Sequence record: PZ445432.1
Source of the DNA: a phage
Length of the DNA stretch: 64,000 bases
Direction: 5' to 3' (one strand)
The notes beneath the pieces are model-generated. The model did not search any database. It worked only from the letters and a program-made list of their open reading frames with translations, and had not been told where the DNA came from. This document shows, in pieces, positions 1 to 63,364 of this stretch. A program made the position numbers and the translations under genes. The first letter of the stretch is position 1; each line of letters starts with the position of its first letter.

Positions 1-1317
1 ATGGAAGTATCAAGACCCTATGTTAATACAGTAGACGTTATTGATTTCGGAATAGACAAACGTTTCTTCCGTCTACCTGTTTCAGGAATATTAGCACAAG
101 AGGGTATTACACCTAACGGCCCTCAAATAGCAATTATCAATGCCCTAGAAGACCCTAGACATCGTTTTGTAACGGCGTGTGTATCACGCCGTGTGGGTAA
201 ATCCTTCATCGCATATACTCTTGGGTTCCTAAAATTGCTGGAACCTAATGTGAAGGTGTTAGTAGTTGCTCCTAACTATTCACTGGCCAACATCGGATGG
301 TCTCAGATTCGTGGTCTTATCAAGAAATATGGGCTACAAACAGAACGTGAAAACGCTAAAGATAAGGAGATTGAGTTATCCAATGGTTCTCTTTTTAAGT
401 TAGCTTCCGCATCCCAGGCTGATTCCGCAGTTGGACGTTCATACGATTTTATCATCTTTGACGAGGCGGCAATTTCCGACGTTGGTGGTGCAGCGTTCGA
501 CATTCAGCTTCGTCCTACGCTAGATAAACCTAATTCTAAGGCTCTATTTATCTCCACTCCTCGTGGTGGTAACTGGTTTAAAGAGTTCTACGAAAAAGGG
601 TTTAATGAAACACTACCTAACTGGGTATCTATTCATGGTACATATCGTGATAACCCCCGTGCTGACCTGAATGATATTGAGGAAGCACGTCGTACAGTTA
701 GTAAAAACTACTTCCGCCAAGAATACGAGGCTGACTTCTCTGTATTCGAAGGTCAGATCTTTGATACCTTTAATGCTATCGATCATGTTAAAGACCTTAA
801 AGGTATGCGTCACTTCTTTAAAGATGACGAAGCCTTCGAAACGTTGCTTGGCATTGACGTTGGTTATCGTGATCCTACAGCAGTTCTTACTATTAAGTAC
901 CACTATGATACAGATACTTACTATGTATTAGAAGAGTACCAGCAGGCGGAGAAAACCACAGCTCAGCATGCTGCTTATATTCAGCACTGTATAGATCGTT
1001 ATAAAGTTGATCGTATCTTCGTTGACTCCGCGGCTGCCCAGTTCCGTCAGGACTTAGCTTATGAGCATGAAATTGCATCAGCCCCAGCTAAAAAATCTGT
1101 TCTAGATGGCCTAGCATGCTTGCAAGCGCTATTCCAGCAGGGCAAGATTATTGTAGATGCTTCATGTTCCTCATTAATCCATGCATTGCAGAACTATAAG
1201 TGGGACTTCCAAGAAGGCGAAGAGAAATTATCGCGTGAAAAACCACGTCATGATGCTAACTCTCACCTTTGTGATGCACTCCGCTATGGAATTTACTCTA
1301 TTTCCCGTGGTAAATAA
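1..1317 (+). CDS. terminase large subunit (T5-like)
   Basis: 438-aa ORF starting at the window edge; Walker A-like RRVGKSF and Walker B-like IIFDEAA motifs; first gene of a collinear T5-type head module. Confidence 0.8.
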   Translation: MEVSRPYVNTVDVIDFGIDKRFFRLPVSGILAQEGITPNGPQIAIINALEDPRHRFVTACVSRRVGKSFIAYTLGFLKLLEPNVKVLVVAPNYSLANIGWSQIRGLIKKYGLQTERENAKDKEIELSNGSLFKLASASQADSAVGRSYDFIIFDEAAISDVGGAAFDIQLRPTLDKPNSKALFISTPRGGNWFKEFYEKGFNETLPNWVSIHGTYRDNPRADLNDIEEARRTVSKNYFRQEYEADFSVFEGQIFDTFNAIDHVKDLKGMRHFFKDDEAFETLLGIDVGYRDPTAVLTIKYHYDTDTYYVLEEYQQAEKTTAQHAAYIQHCIDRYKVDRIFVDSAAAQFRQDLAYEHEIASAPAKKSVLDGLACLQALFQQGKIIVDASCSSLIHALQNYKWDFQEGEEKLSREKPRHDANSHLCDALRYGIYSISRGK

Positions 1318-1330
1318 ATAAGTATAGGAT

Positions 1331-1354
1331 GGGATACCACTCAGTTGGTATCCC
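1331..1354 (+). terminator. stem-loop immediately 3' of the terminase gene (gggatacca-ctcagt-tggtatccc)
   Basis: perfect 9-bp stem read from sequence; no clean U-tract, so it may be a processing or attenuation structure rather than a strong terminator. Confidence 0.3.
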
Positions 1355-1376
1355 ATTCCTGCATTTTAAAATCCCC

Positions 1377-1405
1377 TTTACAAATTCGATACGATTATGT
1401 ATACT
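1377..1405 (+). promoter_or_regulatory. sigma70-like promoter TTTACA-17-TATACT upstream of the HNH gene
   Basis: hexamers and 17-nt spacer read from sequence. Confidence 0.3.
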
Positions 1406-1577
1406 ATATTCATTGATCGGGAGAACCTCTCCCATAATAGAACGTAAACAAGAAAAATTATTTTGCTATGTTGCCTATATTAGAGGTAAAAATACCCGCC
1501 GAGGCAGCATAAAAATCTGTATAGTAGAGTTAATAATAACCGCATACAGTATTATAATAAAAAAGTTAGGAGCATTA

Positions 1578-2015
1578 ATGGCAACTAATGTAAAGTTTAA
1601 ACGTGACGCTATTTCAATCATGCGTGACGGTATAAAATCTAGGTATAGAAGAGGTGATTGCTGTGCCATTTGTGCTAGTAATGATGACCTAGAGTTGCAT
1701 CATTATTTTACTGTTTCTCAATTAGTAAAAAAGTTCGCTAAAGAAAATCACTTAGATTTCACTGATGAGGAAGTTACCCTATCAAATAGGGAAGCATTCT
1801 ATAAGCAATATGAGCGAGAGCTGATTGAAGAAGTAGTAACACTCTGCCAGCATCACCACCAACTGTTACATAAGGTGTACACTAAAGAGCCTCCTTTATT
1901 TTCTGCTAGTAAACAGAAAGCATGGGTTCAAAAGCAGAAAGACAAATTACAGAATCCTCAAGAAAAGACACAAGTCAAGACTGAAACAAAATCAGGATTC
2001 GCAAGGTTCTTATAA
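1578..2015 (+). CDS. HNH homing endonuclease (free-standing)
   Basis: CCAICASNDDLELHHYF and CQHHHQLLH motifs (Cys pairs plus His-rich HNH core); AGGAG 5 nt upstream of the ATG at 1578; the longer ORF from 1329 has no RBS. Confidence 0.7.
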   Translation: MATNVKFKRDAISIMRDGIKSRYRRGDCCAICASNDDLELHHYFTVSQLVKKFAKENHLDFTDEEVTLSNREAFYKQYERELIEEVVTLCQHHHQLLHKVYTKEPPLFSASKQKAWVQKQKDKLQNPQEKTQVKTETKSGFARFL

Positions 2016-3226
2016 TGGGTTTTAAAAGCTGGATTACTGAAAAGCTAAATCCGGGTCAACGTATTATAAGAGACATGGAACCAGTTAGTCATCGCACTAA
2101 CCGTAAGCCTTTTACCACTGGGCAAGCCTATAGCAAGATTGAGATTCTCAATCGAACTGCCAATATGGTTATAGATAGTGCGGCGGAGTGTTCTTATACT
2201 GTCGGAGATAAATATAATATTGTTACGTACGCTAATGGCGTCAAAACAAAGACTCTAGACACTCTCTTAAATGTACGACCTAATCCATTCATGGATATAA
2301 GCACATTCCGTAGACTTGTAGTCACTGACCTACTTTTTGAAGGTTGTGCATACATCTATTGGGATGGCACAGCACTTTACCACGTCCCGGCTGCTCTTAT
2401 GCAGGTCGAGGCAGATGCCAATAAGTTTATCAAAAAATTTACATTTAATAATCAGATAGACTATCGCGTAGATGAGATTATCTTTATAAAGGATAACAGT
2501 TACGTGTGTGGCACAAATTCTCAAATTTCTGGACAATCTCGTGTTGCTACTGTTATTGATTCTCTTGAGAAGCGTTCTAAGATGCTTAACTTTAAAGAGA
2601 AATTCCTCGATAACGGAACCGTGATTGGTCTTATTCTTGAGACGGATGAAATCCTGAACAAGAAATTGCGTGAGCGTAAACAAGAAGAATTACAACTCGA
2701 TTATAATCCTAGTACTGGTCAGTCTACTGTCCTGATTCTAGATGGTGGTATGAAAGCAAAACCGTACTCCCAAATATCCTCTTTTAAAGATCTAGACTTT
2801 AAGGAAGACATCGAAGGATTTAATAAATCCATCTGTCTTGCCTTTGGTGTTCCGCAAGTGTTACTTGATGGTGGTAATAATGCTAACATTCGACCAAACA
2901 TCGAATTGTTCTATTATATGACCATCATTCCTATGCTGAACAAACTGACTAGTTCTCTTACTTTCTTTTTTGGTTATAAGATCACTCCTAATACTAAGGA
3001 AGTCGCAGCATTAACACCAGATAAAGAAGCAGAGGCTAAACATTTAACCTCATTGGTTAATAATGGTATTATAACCGGTAACGAAGCTCGTTCAGAGCTG
3101 AACCTTGAGCCTTTAGATGATGAGCAGATGAATAAGATCCGTATTCCTGCTAACGTCGCTGGTTCTGCAACAGGTGTATCTGGTCAAGAAGGTGGTAGAC
3201 CTAAAGATTCCACCGAGGGAGATTAA
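2015..3226 (+). CDS. portal protein (pb7-like)
   Basis: 403-aa ORF directly after terminase/HNH; size and position match the T5 portal. Confidence 0.75.
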   Translation: MGFKSWITEKLNPGQRIIRDMEPVSHRTNRKPFTTGQAYSKIEILNRTANMVIDSAAECSYTVGDKYNIVTYANGVKTKTLDTLLNVRPNPFMDISTFRRLVVTDLLFEGCAYIYWDGTALYHVPAALMQVEADANKFIKKFTFNNQIDYRVDEIIFIKDNSYVCGTNSQISGQSRVATVIDSLEKRSKMLNFKEKFLDNGTVIGLILETDEILNKKLRERKQEELQLDYNPSTGQSTVLILDGGMKAKPYSQISSFKDLDFKEDIEGFNKSICLAFGVPQVLLDGGNNANIRPNIELFYYMTIIPMLNKLTSSLTFFFGYKITPNTKEVAALTPDKEAEAKHLTSLVNNGIITGNEARSELNLEPLDDEQMNKIRIPANVAGSATGVSGQEGGRPKDSTEGD

Positions 3227-5638: not shown

Positions 5639-5959
5639 ATGGTATACTTGTATGGGGGCTATCAAATGGCAGGAAAAGCGATACCTTATGAAATAAGGGA
5701 AAAGCAAATTCTAGAAATTTGCGAAAAAGAAGGATATGTATATAAAGGGGTGGTTGGTACCTTTAAGAATTCAGAATCCAAAATACTGATAGAATGCACT
5801 AAGGATGGTAATTGTTGGACTCCACGCATACGTAATTTTGTCAATACTGGTTCACGATGCCCAAAATGTTGTCAAACACGTTTTTTGAAGGCAAAAGAAA
5901 ATAAAGTAGTCTCTATAGAAGATACTCCTGCTATTTTTTTATATTCAAAGATTGACTAA
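5639..5959 (+). CDS. small Cys-rich protein (possible zinc ribbon); may be the 5' part of a frameshifted GIY-YIG-type endonuclease gene
   Basis: ECTKDGNCW ... CPKCC cysteine cluster; C-terminus AIFLYSKID resembles a GIY motif; overlaps the next ORF by 8 nt in another frame. Confidence 0.35.
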   Translation: MVYLYGGYQMAGKAIPYEIREKQILEICEKEGYVYKGVVGTFKNSESKILIECTKDGNCWTPRIRNFVNTGSRCPKCCQTRFLKAKENKVVSIEDTPAIFLYSKID

Positions 5960-6236
5960 CAATTATCACTCAGTTCTAAAATATGGAATAACTTCCCGAA
6001 ATATTGATGTTCGGATTAGAGAACAATCACGAGTATCAGCCTATACTCACGAACTACTCCTATCAGTGCAACTACCTTCTAGACAGGAGGCATTTATGTT
6101 AGAAGCCTTAGTAAAACAGGCTATTCCTTCTGGGTTTCTTACTCCTGCTCTTCTCCCTGATGGGTATACAGAAACCTGTCTTGAAAAATACCTGCCAGAG
6201 ATAAAACATATAGTTTATAATTATATGTTTTCCTAG
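5952..6236 (+). CDS. GIY-YIG-like fragment (YIG half)
   Basis: VLKYGITSRNIDVRIREQ resembles the YIG-T...R segment of GIY-YIG nucleases (compared from memory to I-TevI); begins in the +1 frame relative to 5639-5959. Confidence 0.35.
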   Translation: MTNNYHSVLKYGITSRNIDVRIREQSRVSAYTHELLLSVQLPSRQEAFMLEALVKQAIPSGFLTPALLPDGYTETCLEKYLPEIKHIVYNYMFS

Positions 6237-9485: not shown

Positions 9486-10382
9486 ATGTTTTATTCTCTC
9501 ATGCGAGAGTCTAAAATAGTTATTGAGTATGACGGTAGGGGGTATCATTTCGATGCCCTCTCTAACTATGATGCTAGTACGTCTTTTCAAGAGTTTAAAA
9601 CTCTTAGACGTACTATTCATAATCGTACCAACTATGCAGACTCTATTATTAATGCTCAAGATCCTTCATCTATTTCATTGGCAATAAATTTCAGTACTAC
9701 GCTTATTGAATCTAACTTCTTTGATTGGATGGGATTCACGCGTGAGGGGAATTCTTTATTTTTGCCAAGAAATACTCCCAATATTGAACCTATTATGTTC
9801 AATATGTATATTATCAATCATAATAATAGCTGTATTTATTTCGAAAACTGCTATGTATCAACAGTTGATTTTTCTCTAGATAAGAGTATACCGATCCTAA
9901 ATGTTGGTATTGAGTCTGGAAAATTCTCTGAAGTATCTACTTTCCGTGATGGATATACGATTACACAAGGTGAGGTACTACCATATAGTCCTCCAGCAGT
10001 GTATACTAATAGCGTGTCATTGCCTGCGCTAATTTCAGCATCTATGTCCTTCCAGCAACAATGTTCTTGGAGGGAAGATAGAAGTATATTTGATATAAAT
10101 AAAGTTTATACTAATAAACGAGCTTATGTCAATGAAATGAATGCTTCCGCAACGCTAGCTTTCTATTACGTTAAGAGATTGGTAGGAGATAAGTTCTTGA
10201 ATCTAGACCCTGAAACAAGAACTCCACTAATTATTAAAAATAAATATGTTTCTGTAACATTTCCTTTAGCACGTATTTCAAAACGCCTAAAATTCTCAGA
10301 TTTGTATCAGGTAGAGTATGATGTAATACCTACTGCTGATTCAGATCCTGTAGAAATAAACTTCTTTGGAGAAAGAAAATAA
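9486..10382 (+). CDS. tail protein of unknown function
   Basis: 298-aa ORF between the tube and chaperone genes. Confidence 0.5.
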   Translation: MFYSLMRESKIVIEYDGRGYHFDALSNYDASTSFQEFKTLRRTIHNRTNYADSIINAQDPSSISLAINFSTTLIESNFFDWMGFTREGNSLFLPRNTPNIEPIMFNMYIINHNNSCIYFENCYVSTVDFSLDKSIPILNVGIESGKFSEVSTFRDGYTITQGEVLPYSPPAVYTNSVSLPALISASMSFQQQCSWREDRSIFDINKVYTNKRAYVNEMNASATLAFYYVKRLVGDKFLNLDPETRTPLIIKNKYVSVTFPLARISKRLKFSDLYQVEYDVIPTADSDPVEINFFGERK

Positions 10383-26817: not shown

Positions 26818-27299
26818 TATTTAATTAAGTCCTCAACAGATGCATGATGTAGCCACGGCTCAAATAAACCAATTACGATTTCCATGTCTTTCTTATTTAA
26901 CACCATATGGGTACGACTCATTAAGTTGTCAACCATCGGGTCTGAGCTATCCAAAGCTATTAACCACTGTCCTCTGTCTTTCTTGAATATTAATGCAGGT
27001 TTGGAGTTCATCTGCTCACCTTCACGTGAGCACTGCTGCCACCACTTCTCTAGAGTGGATTCACCAACATTAAATAAATTACTTGATATATTATCATCTT
27101 TATACCACTTAACTTCGAAGCAGTATTTACTAATGTGTCCGCTTTGTGGTGGAAGGTAGATGTCACCTTTCAGTCCGTGGCTCTGGCCAAAAGCACCAGA
27201 GCCAGGAACACGTTCCCACTCAAGACCTGTACGCTCACGTAGAATATCTCTTACCTGATATTCACCACGTTTACCTTTCTCTCTACTATCTACAGCCAT
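26817..27299 (-). CDS. D14-like protein, possible PD-(D/E)xK-type nuclease
   Basis: 160 aa; GEYQVRDIL...GDIY...FEVKW pattern compatible with a resolvase-type nuclease fold. Confidence 0.4.
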   Translation of the reverse strand: MAVDSREKGKRGEYQVRDILRERTGLEWERVPGSGAFGQSHGLKGDIYLPPQSGHISKYCFEVKWYKDDNISSNLFNVGESTLEKWWQQCSREGEQMNSKPALIFKKDRGQWLIALDSSDPMVDNLMSRTHMVLNKKDMEIVIGLFEPWLHHASVEDLIK

Positions 27300-27808
27300 T
27301 ATTCCTCTGGGAAATTTAATACTGCGAAATCTCCGAAGTATTCTTTTGCTTTAATATCATAGGCTCTGGCAGCCTCCTCTAGTGTATTAAAAGAACCTAA
27401 GTTCTCTCTAATACCAGTATTGGGATTCTTAATTCTAGCCCTGGGTTTACCGTCCCTACCGTTAGGGAAATCTAAACCCTTATATTTAGTAGTCTTAGAT
27501 CTAGAAGCTCTATTTTGGGCTTGCTGAGACTTAGAAGCATTACGTAAGTTACTCGGAGTATCATTTTGTCTATCCCTATCTTTATGATCTACTGAATCAG
27601 CCCAAGTACCATTAGTCATAAAGTAAATTAAGTCGTATACCCTATATTCTGTACCTTTAATACTTGTTCTATAATATCCGTCTTTCGACTGGGATCCGAC
27701 TCTCGATCCTTTCTTTGCTGATCCTACTGATTTTCTATGAAATAGAACACCGCCCCTAATTTCATATCTATCCTGTAGAAATTCTATAGTTATGTCTTGC
27801 TTTTTCAT
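27299..27808 (-). CDS. HNH-AP2 homing endonuclease
   Basis: VDHKDRDRQNDTPSNLR (HNH_3-type) plus C-terminal GSFNTLEEAARAYDIKAKEYFG, a close match to the AP2 DNA-binding motif. Confidence 0.8.
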   Translation of the reverse strand: MKKQDITIEFLQDRYEIRGGVLFHRKSVGSAKKGSRVGSQSKDGYYRTSIKGTEYRVYDLIYFMTNGTWADSVDHKDRDRQNDTPSNLRNASKSQQAQNRASRSKTTKYKGLDFPNGRDGKPRARIKNPNTGIRENLGSFNTLEEAARAYDIKAKEYFGDFAVLNFPEE

Positions 27809-29643
27809 TCTAAATAGGAAAATCCTTCTGCATCTTTTTTGACAGTAATCTTATGGGCCAGTGGGTGAGAGTGCCCATGAGAAACAATGATAGAATTTAG
27901 ACTTTCTTCCTCATTTAATAGTTCAATGAGAGTATCAAGCCCTTTCGTATCAATAAAGCTAATTACTTCATCAAGAAATAGAAGATTAATATTAACTTTA
28001 CTAATAGATGTTAACAGCATACGAATCGCTAACAGAGTTGCTAGATTAATTCGACTTTGCTGACCAGTAGAGCAGTTCTCCATACTGGTACGATTTCCAT
28101 CATTGAAGATTACTACTTGTAATTTTGTTTCATCAAGTTCAAATCCAAGTGCGAATTTACCGCCAGTCATAATAGAAAGATATTTATTAATTAGCTCTTC
28201 AAATACTTTCACGCTATGCTCTAGTTTATACCCTACTAGGTTCTTCAATGCAGCAATTAGAATATCGAGATCAGCTACAGCTTCGGCTACTCCATCAAGT
28301 TTGGAAGTAATCTCAGTCATTTCTGCTTCTGCTTTCTCAATCTGTTCTAGCTTTGCTTTATATTTTGCATTGGCTAATTCGACATTTGCATTATGCTCTT
28401 TGGCAACTGCAACCTTAGAACGTCCATCAGCGATTGCCTGTTCTAGTTGTCGGATTTGCACCTGTAGGTTTTGCACATTGAGTTCTTCAAAAGAAGCGTC
28501 ACTCATTGAATTTTTGAACTCGTCTCTAGCTGCCACTGCTTTATCCAAAGCATCCTTTGCTCTAATATACGCAACGTACTCAAGTTGTTCTTTCTTCAAC
28601 TGTTCTAGCCTAGCTTCAAGAGATTGCTTCTCTTTGAACAGAGGATCATATTCTATTCTAGCCATATCCATTGCTTTTTGAGCAGCAGTTGTATCCAGAT
28701 GAGTACCGCAAGTAGGGCATTCAGTATTTGAAGCCTCTTGCTTGAACTTCTGATAACGTTTCTTAACTTCGCTCGCACGTGAGGTCACAATCGTTAGGTC
28801 ACGCGTAACACTCGAGATCTCTTCATTTTGGTCGGTGGGCGCGGGCAAATTTTTGAAAGGTTCGAAAGATTGTTCGGCAACTTGTACAGCTTTGTCCAAA
28901 TTACGCAACTTAGTAATATTAGCCTCTTGAGACTTGGCTAATGCCGCCTTAATTTTCGATTCAGTAAGTTCTTGTGCTAATGGCTCTTCATCAAACTCCG
29001 GTACTTCTACAGGTTCCTGCAAAGTACCTAGATTATTTTTTCCATTAAGGATTTTCGTAATTACAGCCATCTGGCCCTGCAAATTATTTAAGGTATTTGC
29101 TATTTCTTTACGGTCAGCCTTAACAGTTTCCGACATTTCTTTGTACTGCTCTTGATTGAACAAGTTAACAAGAAAAGCCTTACGTGTTGCATCCGTTGCT
29201 TTTAGAAAATCTAGGTTGGAACCCACTGATTGATAAATCAGTTTGGTGAATGTTTGAAAGTCACCACCCATAATCTCTTCAATCATCTTATATGTTTGGG
29301 TTGCAGTGTGTCCACTAATATCTTCCCCATTCTTAATCAACGTTACTTTAGCAGTTGACTTAACTACTTTATGCAGCTCATACTCATCATCATCTTTTGA
29401 GAAGTAAGCGTGCATATCGTATTCTTTCTTAGGGGCATTCCAAGAGAACAATGCATCCTTCTTGATACCTCGAGAGTTCTTGTTATAAAACAACTCCTCG
29501 ATAACTGTAGCAATGGTGGATTTCCCTAGCCCATTGCCCCCAATTAGTTGAGTAACTGGATTCTTATCGAAATGGATTACGATGTCCTTACCGTAAGACA
29601 TAACGTTACTAAATTTTAGTGTCTTAATTGTAATCTTTGACAT
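27805..29643 (-). CDS. SbcC/Rad50-like recombination ATPase (T5 D13-like)
   Basis: Walker A GGNGLGKST, long coiled-coil, ECPTCGT zinc hook, C-terminal LLFLDEV signature; start placed at MSKITIK (the ORF extends to 29718). Confidence 0.8.
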   Translation of the reverse strand: MSKITIKTLKFSNVMSYGKDIVIHFDKNPVTQLIGGNGLGKSTIATVIEELFYNKNSRGIKKDALFSWNAPKKEYDMHAYFSKDDDEYELHKVVKSTAKVTLIKNGEDISGHTATQTYKMIEEIMGGDFQTFTKLIYQSVGSNLDFLKATDATRKAFLVNLFNQEQYKEMSETVKADRKEIANTLNNLQGQMAVITKILNGKNNLGTLQEPVEVPEFDEEPLAQELTESKIKAALAKSQEANITKLRNLDKAVQVAEQSFEPFKNLPAPTDQNEEISSVTRDLTIVTSRASEVKKRYQKFKQEASNTECPTCGTHLDTTAAQKAMDMARIEYDPLFKEKQSLEARLEQLKKEQLEYVAYIRAKDALDKAVAARDEFKNSMSDASFEELNVQNLQVQIRQLEQAIADGRSKVAVAKEHNANVELANAKYKAKLEQIEKAEAEMTEITSKLDGVAEAVADLDILIAALKNLVGYKLEHSVKVFEELINKYLSIMTGGKFALGFELDETKLQVVIFNDGNRTSMENCSTGQQSRINLATLLAIRMLLTSISKVNINLLFLDEVISFIDTKGLDTLIELLNEEESLNSIIVSHGHSHPLAHKITVKKDAEGFSYLE

Positions 29644-30601
29644 ATTTCGCAGCTCTAGCCAAGATTCTATCAATGTCGCCTTGAGATAGCTTCTCGACTT
29701 CACGGAAGTAAAGTTCAAGTTCGCCTAACATATCAAGATCAACAAGATTTAACTTAGCGTCTTTAGTAACTCGATGGTTAATCTTCTTATCTAATAAATC
29801 AGAGTCTTTGATAGACTTTAATTGAACAACGTCACCAGTAACTTCGTAGACTACACGATCATAATCACTAGGTTCCATCTCTTCACCTGCTCCGATTGTT
29901 TTACGAATCAGTTGTGGTAAATCACCTAGTTCAATCCATTCTACTTTTAATGTGTCGGTATCAATGATAAAGCAACCATTTGTACCTTTTGTGCGTTCTC
30001 TATGGAACGATGTAGTTAATGGAGATCCTGGGTAGAGGAGTCTAGTAGATCCGATAGTCTGGCTATTAGTATAAGAATGTAAATCGCCAGCAATTACAGT
30101 ATCATAACAGTTGTACTTAGTTAGATCGATTTCTGGTTTTACATGTGGTGGGATTTCACCACGAACATGCGTGAAACATAGTTTTGATTCAGCAGGTTTC
30201 CACTTGGGTTTATGAATCTCATCATACGGAACAATATCAAATTCAGGGGAACGATATGGTTTGGTAATTACTTCCCATTTCCCACTAGTTACTTTATTAA
30301 TAACCCCTGCGTAATGATATAGACATGAAATGGTTTTAGTTATTAATTCATGATTACCTGTAAATACCATTCCTATATGATCTAGCCTAGACATAAATTT
30401 TTCTAGAAGTTCTACTTCTTCCGACGACGGGTCGGAATGATCAAATAAATCACCACCAATAATATGCAAATCACAGTTATGATTATGGAATATATCATTT
30501 AGACGGTCTCCCAGCATTAAGAATCTTTTCTTCTGCCATTCTTTGGGAATTTTATCTTGCCCAAGTTTTATATGGTGATCAGCACTAAAGAGTATTTTCA
30601 T
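29624..30601 (-). CDS. SbcD/Mre11-like nuclease (T5 D12-like)
   Basis: calcineurin-like phosphoesterase motifs (SADHH, GDLFD, GNHE); 3' end overlaps the D13 start. Confidence 0.8.
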   Translation of the reverse strand: MKILFSADHHIKLGQDKIPKEWQKKRFLMLGDRLNDIFHNHNCDLHIIGGDLFDHSDPSSEEVELLEKFMSRLDHIGMVFTGNHELITKTISCLYHYAGVINKVTSGKWEVITKPYRSPEFDIVPYDEIHKPKWKPAESKLCFTHVRGEIPPHVKPEIDLTKYNCYDTVIAGDLHSYTNSQTIGSTRLLYPGSPLTTSFHRERTKGTNGCFIIDTDTLKVEWIELGDLPQLIRKTIGAGEEMEPSDYDRVVYEVTGDVVQLKSIKDSDLLDKKINHRVTKDAKLNLVDLDMLGELELYFREVEKLSQGDIDRILARAAKYVKDYN

Positions 30602-31128
30602 GATCTGGCAAATTCTCCGTGTAGTCGCCTACGTTCCCTATCAGCTACTACTTCTGCTTCTTGAATAGTATCATAATATCCAAAGTATTTTGTTTCTCCA
30701 TGGATTTTAAACTGAACCCTATACTTATGTCTCCCAGGTATCCAATATACATTTTTAACACCTGTGGTACTATTAGATCTTACGCTTGTGTTTCTTTCAT
30801 TACCTGATTTATTAGTTGGTCTTAGATTATTCCATCTATTGTTCTTCTTATCTAAGTCTTTGTGGTCTACTACTTCTGCCATTTCATTAGTCTGCATGGC
30901 ATAAATAATTAAATGTACAAGATACTGCTCATTATTAAATGAGGTTCTTAAATACCCTTTTCCATTATCCGTGCCTACTATAGATCCTGCTAACTGACCA
31001 CCCGTTCCTACTTTCCTAGAGAGTAGACCGGACTCAGGATCATAGGAAAATCTTTCTCTGAATTTATTTACTAATAAAATGAATTTTTTAGGGTCTTCCA
31101 AAAATAAGGAATATAGCTTATTTCTCAT
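30598..31128 (-). CDS. HNH-AP2 homing endonuclease
   Basis: VVDHKDLDKKNNRWNNLR plus C-terminal KYFGYYDTIQEAEVVADRERRRLHGEFA AP2-like motif. Confidence 0.75.
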   Translation of the reverse strand: MRNKLYSLFLEDPKKFILLVNKFRERFSYDPESGLLSRKVGTGGQLAGSIVGTDNGKGYLRTSFNNEQYLVHLIIYAMQTNEMAEVVDHKDLDKKNNRWNNLRPTNKSGNERNTSVRSNSTTGVKNVYWIPGRHKYRVQFKIHGETKYFGYYDTIQEAEVVADRERRRLHGEFARS

Positions 31129-37795: not shown

Positions 37796-39258
37796 ATATC
37801 GCTGGCCTGTTCACCTGTTGAATTTTCAGTTTTATCTTTCTTAGCACGTTTAGATTGAGCTGGCTTATCCTTTTCAATAGGGATAATGAACTCAGCTTCC
37901 ATTTGAGATATATCTTCCATTGCTAGGTTGGTAGTGTTATCCATCCGCAGAGTTTCCCAGTTCATCTTAGGCATAAACTTCACGCTACCAGAAGAACGGG
38001 TCTTAACGAAGTCAAACATAATAGCACCTTGACCATTATCAGCTTTTGCAGCATTAAGATTAGCAGCCATGTCTGCGGAATCAAGAATCCCCTTTGACAT
38101 ACGTGTTCTACCATCTTGATCGATCTGGTAAGGAGCTACGCCAGCCACGTTATGTTTCTGGCAGATAGATTTGAAAGACGAGCTAACAACCATCTGTTCT
38201 TTCCAGTCATACATATCAATGGTTTTAGAATCTGGAAGTCGGGTTTGGTTAATATAGTCAAGTAAAGCTACTGTAACCTTATCCCCATATCTAGCAACTA
38301 ATTTATTTAACTCTACGTCAACTGTTGTAATAGACAGCTCAGGGTCATAAACAATAATCATAGGAGTATGTAGCTCATATCCTTCTATTAGCTTACTTTC
38401 CATATCGTAGAAATCACTCATCTTAGCCATTGTGTACTGTTTAACGAAGTTATCGAAAAGCTCTTCACCACCATTAAACATTCTAGCTCTAGTTCTGGCT
38501 AATCTCAACAGAGCTGCACCTTCTAGAGTATTATTACGCATTGCTAATGCTGATACACCAGCTAACATGGCTAGATTACGTCTAAATACTTCATGTTCTT
38601 TCATCTCAATTGAGAAGTATGGAGCAATATCCCCATTCAAATATTGCTGAACCTGTATGTTTGAACAGATAATGGATTTACCAGTACCACGCCAACCACC
38701 AAGCAGTAACGTTTCTGTGCGAGCTAAACCAATTTGAGCGTCGAACTCATTACAAATACCAAGAGCGATTAAATTCAGTTTGGTATCTTCTTCTCTCTGG
38801 AAAATACGCATGTTATCTGCGTTGAATACTTTCCCAGTATTCGTTACTTTCTCTTCTAATTTTAAGTGAAGGGAGGCAACTCGGTTAAGAATTTCTCCCT
38901 GATCCAGCATTGTTAAATCTTGAAGCACGTCTGTTTCTAGAAGCTTCAGGAATAAATCCTGTGTATACTCGGCCTCTAGGACTTCAAGTGCCTGTTCCAT
39001 GCTAACTTCTGGAATTTGAGTGTTAGCTAAAACGACTAGAGCTTGAGAAAGGCGGGCGTTCCTATTAGCCTCAAGCATCAGTGCGTCAATGGACGGCATT
39101 GTGTTATATTTTTTATAATAATTCTGGACGGCTTGGTAAATTGAGGAGAAAGCGTCATTAAAATGATCTTTATGCAGTTTTGAGAATGTTTCCAATGCTA
39201 TTTGCTTCTGTTCGGAAGCTAGAAGCATCTTCAACACTACAGCTTGCACGTTAAACAT
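37792..39258 (-). CDS. replicative DNA helicase (DnaB-like)
   Basis: 488 aa; Walker A GGWRGTGKS and RecA-like C-terminal domain. Confidence 0.8.
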   Translation of the reverse strand: MFNVQAVVLKMLLASEQKQIALETFSKLHKDHFNDAFSSIYQAVQNYYKKYNTMPSIDALMLEANRNARLSQALVVLANTQIPEVSMEQALEVLEAEYTQDLFLKLLETDVLQDLTMLDQGEILNRVASLHLKLEEKVTNTGKVFNADNMRIFQREEDTKLNLIALGICNEFDAQIGLARTETLLLGGWRGTGKSIICSNIQVQQYLNGDIAPYFSIEMKEHEVFRRNLAMLAGVSALAMRNNTLEGAALLRLARTRARMFNGGEELFDNFVKQYTMAKMSDFYDMESKLIEGYELHTPMIIVYDPELSITTVDVELNKLVARYGDKVTVALLDYINQTRLPDSKTIDMYDWKEQMVVSSSFKSICQKHNVAGVAPYQIDQDGRTRMSKGILDSADMAANLNAAKADNGQGAIMFDFVKTRSSGSVKFMPKMNWETLRMDNTTNLAMEDISQMEAEFIIPIEKDKPAQSKRAKKDKTENSTGEQASDI

Positions 39259-39832
39259 TATTTAGCAACTCCTCTGTAAAGTTATCCGCTATATTCTGCG
39301 GTTTAACCCTCTCTATATCTAGAGCATCTAGGGCTGCGAAATCTCCGTACAAGGCTAAAAGCAGCTTATCTCTATACCACAGAGCTTCTCCTAGAGTTTT
39401 TAGGGTTTTTCTAAATACTTTGGAGTTTTTAGATATGGTTACTTTAAATGTGTTATTTTTTGTTACTTCTATGTTACGAATGCCTAGCTTGTTACCTATA
39501 AAGCTATTAGCGGAATTTTGAGAGGAAGTAACTTCACGTAAGTTATTCCAAGTATTATCAGTTTTAATTCTATTTTTATGATCAACCTTGTCAGGGATTT
39601 CTCCTTCCATATATAGAAAGGCCCACCTATGCGCTCCCATAGATTTTTGTATACCTGACTCTAAGGTTATCTTTATGTAAATATAGCCTGATGAATGCAT
39701 ATAGCCTGCAGGTTTGTTAGCGTGCTTAGCATTGAACGCAGGATTATTTTCTCTAGGTAGCCAGTAGAAATTTCCAGTATCAGGCTCATATCTTAATAAT
39801 GTTTTAAGATACTGCTGGGTAATCTCCCCCAT
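39251..39832 (-). CDS. HNH-AP2 homing endonuclease
   Basis: VDHKNRIKTDNTWNNLR plus a C-terminal AP2-like segment. Confidence 0.7.
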   Translation of the reverse strand: MGEITQQYLKTLLRYEPDTGNFYWLPRENNPAFNAKHANKPAGYMHSSGYIYIKITLESGIQKSMGAHRWAFLYMEGEIPDKVDHKNRIKTDNTWNNLREVTSSQNSANSFIGNKLGIRNIEVTKNNTFKVTISKNSKVFRKTLKTLGEALWYRDKLLLALYGDFAALDALDIERVKPQNIADNFTEELLNNV

Positions 39833-62848: not shown

Positions 62849-63364
62849 ATGGCTAAGCAGAAAAACGCAAAAACTCAAGCAGCAACTACAGTTAAAACTT
62901 TCCCTCAGACTGAGGCTAACCGCAAAGCTCGTCTGGAACGCCACCTGCGCAAGCATCCTACTGATGCTCAAGCTGCACAGGCACTGAATCGTCCGGCTCC
63001 GATTCGTCAAAAGCCGAAGGCTAAGAATGCTACTCGTTCTGTAACCCGCCTTGTGACCTATGTACAGGGTTATGGCCACAAATCTGTTCCAGTAACACTG
63101 AGTTTCAATGCTGGAGCTGAATTGTTCCCTCGTAATGGCATGGCCATGAAAGATTACGAGAAAGCAGTTAACCAGAAACGCAAGCCAACGGCAGATGTGC
63201 TTCGTGACACTCATGGACAGTTTGGCTCTGTTAAGCCAAATATCTTTGGCGTAGAGTATAGTAAAGATAGTGTTCGTGCTCTGTGTTACGGTGTAGGCAT
63301 TAAGTTCACTGGTGATTCTGCTCGTAAATCTGCTAAACCAGCTCGTAAACGTAAAGCGAAGTAA
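62849..63364 (+). CDS. highly basic protein of unknown function
   Basis: 171 aa; Lys/Arg-rich N- and C-terminal tails; high-expression codon usage; own promoter and terminator. Confidence 0.65.
   Translation: MAKQKNAKTQAATTVKTFPQTEANRKARLERHLRKHPTDAQAAQALNRPAPIRQKPKAKNATRSVTRLVTYVQGYGHKSVPVTLSFNAGAELFPRNGMAMKDYEKAVNQKRKPTADVLRDTHGQFGSVKPNIFGVEYSKDSVRALCYGVGIKFTGDSARKSAKPARKRKAK

Follow-up and report, generated by a model that had tools for sequence, protein, structure and literature searches.

Small free-standing His-Me finger proteins of the HK97 gp74 type (Pfam PF01844) are found in cos phages, where their genes lie beside those of the terminase and the portal protein. Terminase-associated HNH proteins are also mentioned in a review (PMC5714182). 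The DNA of phage T5 has localized single-chain interruptions in one of its strands, and the major nicks follow the consensus 5'-R/GCGCRGG-3' (PMC3517423). Two genes, sciA and sciB, were mapped genetically to the T5 late region, and the same source gives the biological purpose of the nicks as unknown (PMC3517423); its passage citing Rogers et al. 1979 describes interruption-deficient T5 mutants as viable. Strand- and sequence-specific nicks of unknown purpose are likewise reported in the virion DNA of phiKMV-like and LUZ24/tf-like Pseudomonas phages (PMC3517423). These phages differ from T5 in their consensus sites, e.g., TACTGTGAC in tf, and PMC3517423 does not name a nickase gene for them.

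Here we analyze a gene from a 64,000-nucleotide stretch of phage DNA (record PZ445432.1, hereafter the window), located between the genes for the large terminase subunit (terL) and the portal protein. An earlier, sequence-only reading had described it as a free-standing HNH endonuclease gene and offered two functions, a selfish homing element or an accessory factor of the terminase. Both miss the documented role of the gene, which is that of sciA, a site-specific nicking endonuclease.

Results

The Gene between terL and Portal Matches sciA of T5

Over its first 3.3 kb, the window matches Escherichia phage HildyBeyeler (Bas33, MZ501074, Tequintavirus) with 100% identity. The features of the locus are listed in Table 1. 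The open reading frame (ORF) runs from an ATG at 1578-1580 to a TAA at 2013-2015 and has 145 codons. Its stop codon overlaps the ATG of the portal gene as TAATG, which suggests translational coupling of the two genes, and a spacer of 260 bp (1318-1577) separates it from terL. Much of the sequence-only reading was borne out here: the gene is free-standing, codes for a small nuclease and is flanked by terL and portal, both of which have Pfam matches. The ORF has an ATG start, 145 amino acids and an AGGAG ribosome-binding site. The placement "directly after" the large terminase is correct for the gene order but passes over the 260-bp spacer. The protein was also called Cys- and His-rich, and its 4 Cys and 7 His indeed cluster, with all 4 Cys and 4 of the His lying within the motif C29xxC32 ... 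H41H42 ... C90xxH93H94xxxH98, but in 145 residues the overall enrichment is modest.

The protein is named consistently across databases. The HildyBeyeler GenBank record labels the same ORF (CDS bas33_0003) "nicking endonuclease," the UniRef name is "Nicking endonuclease," and the ortholog in Gostya9 and DT57C is annotated "sciA: nicking site-specific endonuclease." All 35 of the 35 database homologs carry PF26848.1 in their precomputed Pfam annotations. A search of PDB sequences returned 9qgv_A and 9qgx_A, both "Nicking endonuclease," with an E value of 5e-81 across residues 1-145. The same two entries were recovered by Foldseek (E 1e-13, TM 0.86) with an AlphaFold2 model computed from 26 homologs (mean pLDDT 81, pTM 0.70). 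Their titles name the SciA endonuclease of Escherichia phage T5 in complex with 10 bp DNA, in one case as SciA(H42A) with "GCGC sequence 1" and in the other as SciA(H42Q) with "GCGC sequence 2"; the entries were released on 2026-03-25, and their protein chains show 119-121 residues only. A literature search for structures or biochemistry of SciA found no paper, and the activity is known from database titles and annotations.

The T5 ortholog is T5.153, which is flanked by the portal gene and, via T5.154, by the terminase gene. It has the same length as the window protein and is 83% identical to it over 145 residues, and position 42 is His in wild-type T5.153 and in the window protein alike. The two proteins share the same invariant Cys and His residues, H42 included, and the same position between terL and portal. 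We are highly confident that the ORF is sciA, which in T5-like phages (Demerecviridae) encodes the site-specific DNA nicking endonuclease. This identity is already known, as the source record carries the annotation and the T5 ortholog has been crystallized on its DNA site.

Table 1. Features of the sciA locus and related elements in the window
Feature	Position	Strand	Basis and remarks
Large terminase subunit gene (terL)	1..1317	+	Pfam Terminase_6N 1.8e-15, Terminase_6C 3.1e-11; annotation
Terminator-like hairpin right after terL	1327..1358	+	13-bp stem, T-rich tail; kept in T5, SP15 and Gostya9; consensus match only
Promoter-like site in spacer, conserved	1377-1405		Consensus match only
Spacer segment unrelated to T5	1465..1577	+	113 bp; alignment with T5, SP15 and Gostya9
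Promoter-like site in spacer	1530-1558	+	TTAATA-17-TATAAT; consensus match only
Shine-Dalgarno AGGAG of sciA	1568..1572	+	5 nt before ATG; read from sequence
sciA (bas33_0003), site-specific nicking endonuclease, 145 aa	1578..2015	+	ORF, GenBank annotation, PDB match, Foldseek
First half of split HNH motif	1662..1703	+	C29-x-x-C32 zinc knuckle, strand L38-E39-L40, H41-H42; alignments, AlphaFold2 strand 38-40
Helical insert, residues 43-84	1704..1829	+	AlphaFold2 helices 43-56, 64-69, 71-77 and 79-84; splits beta hairpin
Second half of split HNH motif	1839..1871	+	Strand T88-L89-C90, helix with H93, H94 and H98 (LCQHHHQLLH); alignments, AlphaFold2
C-terminal tail, residues 131-145	1968..2012	+	Predicted disordered, pLDDT below 50; ends SGFARFL
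Portal protein gene	2015..3226	+	Pfam Phage_portal 6.8e-51; sequence
HNH_3 (PF13392) putative homing endonuclease genes	27299-27808, 30598-31128, 39251-39832	-	Pfam
Predicted SciA target G/GCGCGGG, T5-type major interruption	28838..28845	+	Nick 28838/28839; T5 identity and conservation

A Split HNH Motif Is Predicted in SciA

The SciA family shares the pattern C29-x-x-C32 ... L-E-L-H41-H42 ... L89-C90-x-x-H93-H94-x-x-x-H98. In the alignments, C29, H41, H42, C90, H93 and H98 are invariant even among homologs with 40% identity, and C32 and H94 are nearly so; according to the PDB titles, the T5 proteins that were crystallized carry mutations of H42 (H42A and H42Q). The AlphaFold2 model places H41-H42 directly after a strand at residues 38-40, followed by helices within residues 43-84, a strand at 88-90 and a helix at 91-100 that carries H93, H94 and H98. 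The core of SciA is thus modeled as a beta-beta-alpha fold in which ~45 residues, mostly helical, are inserted into the hairpin. The elements C29xxC32 and C90xxH93 would provide the zinc ligands, and the likely general base, H42, sits where the first beta strand ends.

Standard profiles did not recognize this arrangement. Pfam and NCBIfam scans gave no HNH match for SciA or for any of 26 members of its family, the best E values being ~0.1 (AI2M-like_HNH, HNH_2 and HNHc_6). A family-profile search of PDB sequences found nothing beyond the two SciA entries, and Foldseek gave no further significant fold match, with the HNH protein Cap5 at E ~4. The profile of PHROG 8048, "HNH endonuclease," on the other hand, matches SciA at E 1.6e-5. 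When 1.84 billion representatives were searched exhaustively with a profile, just 151 relatives came up at E <= 1e-3, and the most distant of these carry a canonical CxxC..HH..N.TLCxxCHxxxH around the same insert. With the insert kept, PF01844 aligns to these most distant relatives as two separate halves, each below threshold; once the insert of ~40 residues was excised in silico from two distant members (P0172 and P0179), PF01844 matched over its whole profile, with E values of 3e-4 and 6e-5, the latter at 23.6 bits (cut-off 21.4). The same excision in the window protein still gave no Pfam HNH match, PF01844 included.

Because of the PHROG match and the PF01844 matches of the insert-excised distant members, we conclude that SciA probably represents a divergent, split-motif family within the HNH superfamily, with a Pfam entry of its own (PF26848), and that the HNH assignment applies at the superfamily level only. 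The earlier designation as an HNH protein stands in this restricted sense, as a split-motif variant, with no HNH match in Pfam or NCBIfam and no other HNH structure at a significant level in Foldseek. The gene was also said to belong to a family other than that of the remaining HNH genes of the window, and this is correct: those three are of the HNH_3 family (PF13392), and SciA matches no Pfam HNH family.

A T5-Type Major Nick Site Is Present in the Window

The T5 record contains "major DNA single-chain interruption" features on the minus strand at 39746/39747, 78573/78574 and 121279/121280, which read, in this order on the nicked strand, A/GCGCAGGGC, G/GCGCGGGCA and A/GCGCAGGGC. The plus strand of the window corresponds to the T5 minus strand. 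Around 78573/78574, ~100 bp of T5 (28790-28888 in the window) are identical between the two phages on the corresponding strand, so that the window shares this major nick site with T5, in the D13 gene in both. This nick, the 64.8% nick of T5, was placed in the T5 record "by match to the consensus" and not by direct end mapping. The flank of the 32.6% nick site has no match in the window, and that site falls outside it.

The predicted nick lies inside the SbcC-like D13 gene (27805-29703, minus strand), where the site encodes Pro-Ala-Pro (CCC GCG CCC). We compared the segment among 29 distinct Tequintavirus sequences, and the site reads R/GCGCRGG in all 29. Variation within it is confined to C/T at the third position of a Pro codon, equivalent to the R of the consensus, and Ala is always encoded by GCG; in the D13 segment overall, 76 of the 167 third positions vary. 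This conservation is consistent with selection on the nick site, with a sample of 29 sequences that is too small to serve as proof.

The number of consensus sites by itself gives no support, as the matches are at chance level: RGCGCRGG occurs twice in the window, once per strand (1.8 expected), and GCGCRGG three times (3.6 expected), the two occurrences besides the site at 28838 being GCGCAGG sequences on the minus strand (10023-10030 and 62944-62950). We also considered depletion of GCGC as a sign of self-avoidance by the nickase. The tetranucleotide occurs 45 times compared with 86 expected (ratio 0.52), but GGCC (0.55), CGCG (0.63) and CATG (0.63) are similarly under-represented, and we rejected the explanation as non-specific.

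SciA and the Packaging Machinery

The position of the gene could also indicate an accessory HNH factor similar to HK97 gp74, stimulating or completing concatemer cleavage by the terminase, e.g., when the long terminal repeats are generated, with nicking as a secondary activity. SciA resembles the gp74-type proteins in being small and free-standing, in adjoining the terminase and portal genes, and in its zinc-knuckle signature of the CxxC ... HH ... CxxH type. Its gene lies between terL and portal, is probably coupled to the latter in translation and keeps this synteny across the whole family; phage His-Me finger nucleases are described as components of packaging machines in a review (PMC5714182), and the conserved, disordered SGFxxFL tail at the C terminus could dock a partner. 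Against this, SciA has no significant match to PF01844, to which the terminase-associated HNH proteins belong, and its motif is split by the helical insert of ~45 residues. What is documented for SciA is site-specific nicking within the genome and not the formation of an end, and the substrate in the crystals is a GCGC nick-site duplex instead of a genome end. Finally, T5 mutants without nicks are viable in the account that PMC3517423 gives of Rogers et al. 1979, which makes an essential packaging role unlikely, and we set that role aside. Help to the terminase may be a second function of SciA, whereas packaging as its primary task is, in our judgment, highly improbable.

The tail ends in the conserved motif SGF[AGS][RK]FL, which is duplicated in some of the homologs (P0009, P0010 and P0012). 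Vibrio relatives have a similar hydrophobic peptide at the C terminus, and in the crystal chains of T5 SciA the peptide is not visible. We raise, as a tentative and rather unlikely proposal, that the nickase SciA is tied physically to the packaging machine through this tail, docking on the terminase, the portal or the procapsid and nicking during DNA translocation. Such an arrangement would explain the restriction of the nicks to one strand and the invariant order of terL, sciA and portal.

sciA Is a Core Gene with Fixed Synteny

A tblastn search with SciA found 900 phage records, and in 899 of them the homolog is full length; sciA is therefore a genuine gene and not a chance ORF. The corresponding search for the T5-type large terminase found 908 records, with counts per host genus near those of the SciA search. 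Vibrio Demerecviridae, in which SciA is 40-46% identical, have the same order of terL, sciA and portal. As the numbers of records nearly agree (900 versus 908) and the gene is found in a single fixed position down to 40% identity, sciA has the pattern of a core gene that is inherited vertically and whose synteny is fixed. The gene is disrupted in SUT_E420 and SP3, both of them "partial genome" records. In these, the portal gene also lacks its 5' part or is split, so the disruptions look like sequencing errors, and we did not accept the two phages as natural sciA knock-outs. For the check proposed earlier, on relatives lacking the ORF, the only two disrupted copies examined are those in these error-laden partial genomes.

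This distribution contradicts the suggestion that sciA is a selfish homing endonuclease, i.e., a mobile, free-standing gene whose nuclease cuts genomes without the gene and so lets it spread. The gene is indeed small and free-standing, sits in an intergenic-like position and belongs to a group of phages whose T5-like genomes contain many homing endonucleases, including the three HNH_3 genes of the window; its direct upstream neighbor in T5 and SP15 is a T5orf172 gene. A presence in 900 records against 908 with a T5-type TerL, always at one locus, is nevertheless not a sporadic pattern, the sole two disrupted copies examined come from the partial genomes above, and the element that is sporadic at the locus is the neighbor T5.154, which is absent from the window. 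We therefore rejected the homing explanation on distribution and regard it as hardly tenable.

The HNH_3 genes are, like sciA, genes for His-Me finger nucleases in the same genome. They differ in belonging to another Pfam family, in lying among replication and recombination genes and in being annotated as homing endonucleases, whereas sciA is a core gene of fixed position. One of the HNH_3 genes directly adjoins D13, the gene with the predicted nick site. In addition, two overlapping short ORFs follow the major capsid gene on the plus strand. The first (97 aa, 5666-5959) combines a CapR homology domain with a zinc finger of the treble-clef type, and the second (94 aa, 5952-6236) shows weak similarity (E 0.005) to the T5orf172 portion of T5.154. 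Taken together, the two resemble a homing-type endonuclease gene that has been split or is decaying.

The Window Allele and Its Spacer Differ from T5

T5 has T5.154, with a CapR homology domain and T5orf172 (Pfam), between terL and sciA, and the window does not. The gene is present in T5 and SP15, degraded in Gostya9 and absent from the window, which has the unrelated spacer segment instead (Table 1). Across ~1465-1900, DNA identity to T5 is 65-80%, inside flanks of 98-100%, and this block reaches through sciA codons 1-108. It looks like a recombination or co-conversion tract beside a mobile endonuclease gene, as judged from the alignment. At the protein level, 24 of the 145 residues are substituted in comparison with T5 SciA, clustered in residues 5-87. 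This cluster takes in the insert. With these substitutions, a specificity equal to that of T5 SciA is an assumption, under which the Bas33 allele would nick the same sites as the T5 enzyme.

There is next to no chance that the window allele is an inactive relic, binding DNA but without catalysis: it has diverged to 83% identity with T5 SciA, has His (H93) where the CxxC-H element canonically has its second Cys and shows no evident canonical Asn, but H93 and the missing Asn are common to T5 SciA itself, all invariant residues including H42 are intact, and the full-length ORF is preceded by a good ribosome-binding site.

Within the spacer, the terminator-like hairpin behind terL and the conserved promoter-like site that follows it suggest that a boundary of transcription may separate terL from sciA and portal. 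The gene upstream of the window start (1-483 in the phage record) is mostly annotated as "terminase small subunit" and in some records, e.g., PP534475 and OK108607, as "putative SciB protein." Because the gene before terL is called SciB in some records, the second nick-control locus, sciB, may coincide with the gene for the small terminase subunit (terS).

Discussion

In the mechanism that we propose for the nickase, sciA would be expressed together with the late packaging and head genes. Its product is modeled as a small basic protein on a divergent HNH (beta-beta-alpha-metal) core, with H94 and H98 on the helix at residues 91-100. SciA would recognize the GCGC core within the asymmetric R/GCGCRGG and cut just 5' of GCGC, only in the strand that reads R/GCGCRGG. 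The outcome would be strand-specific single-chain interruptions in virion DNA of the T5 type, one of which is predicted in the plus strand of the window within D13.

What matters most is the correct label: the gene is that of the T5-family nickase SciA, neither an unknown HNH protein nor a homing element. The family would represent a split-motif HNH variant overlooked by the standard Pfam HNH profiles. The window holds sciA together with its predicted cognate nick site, and the conserved C-terminal peptide of SciA may offer a handle on a partner protein.
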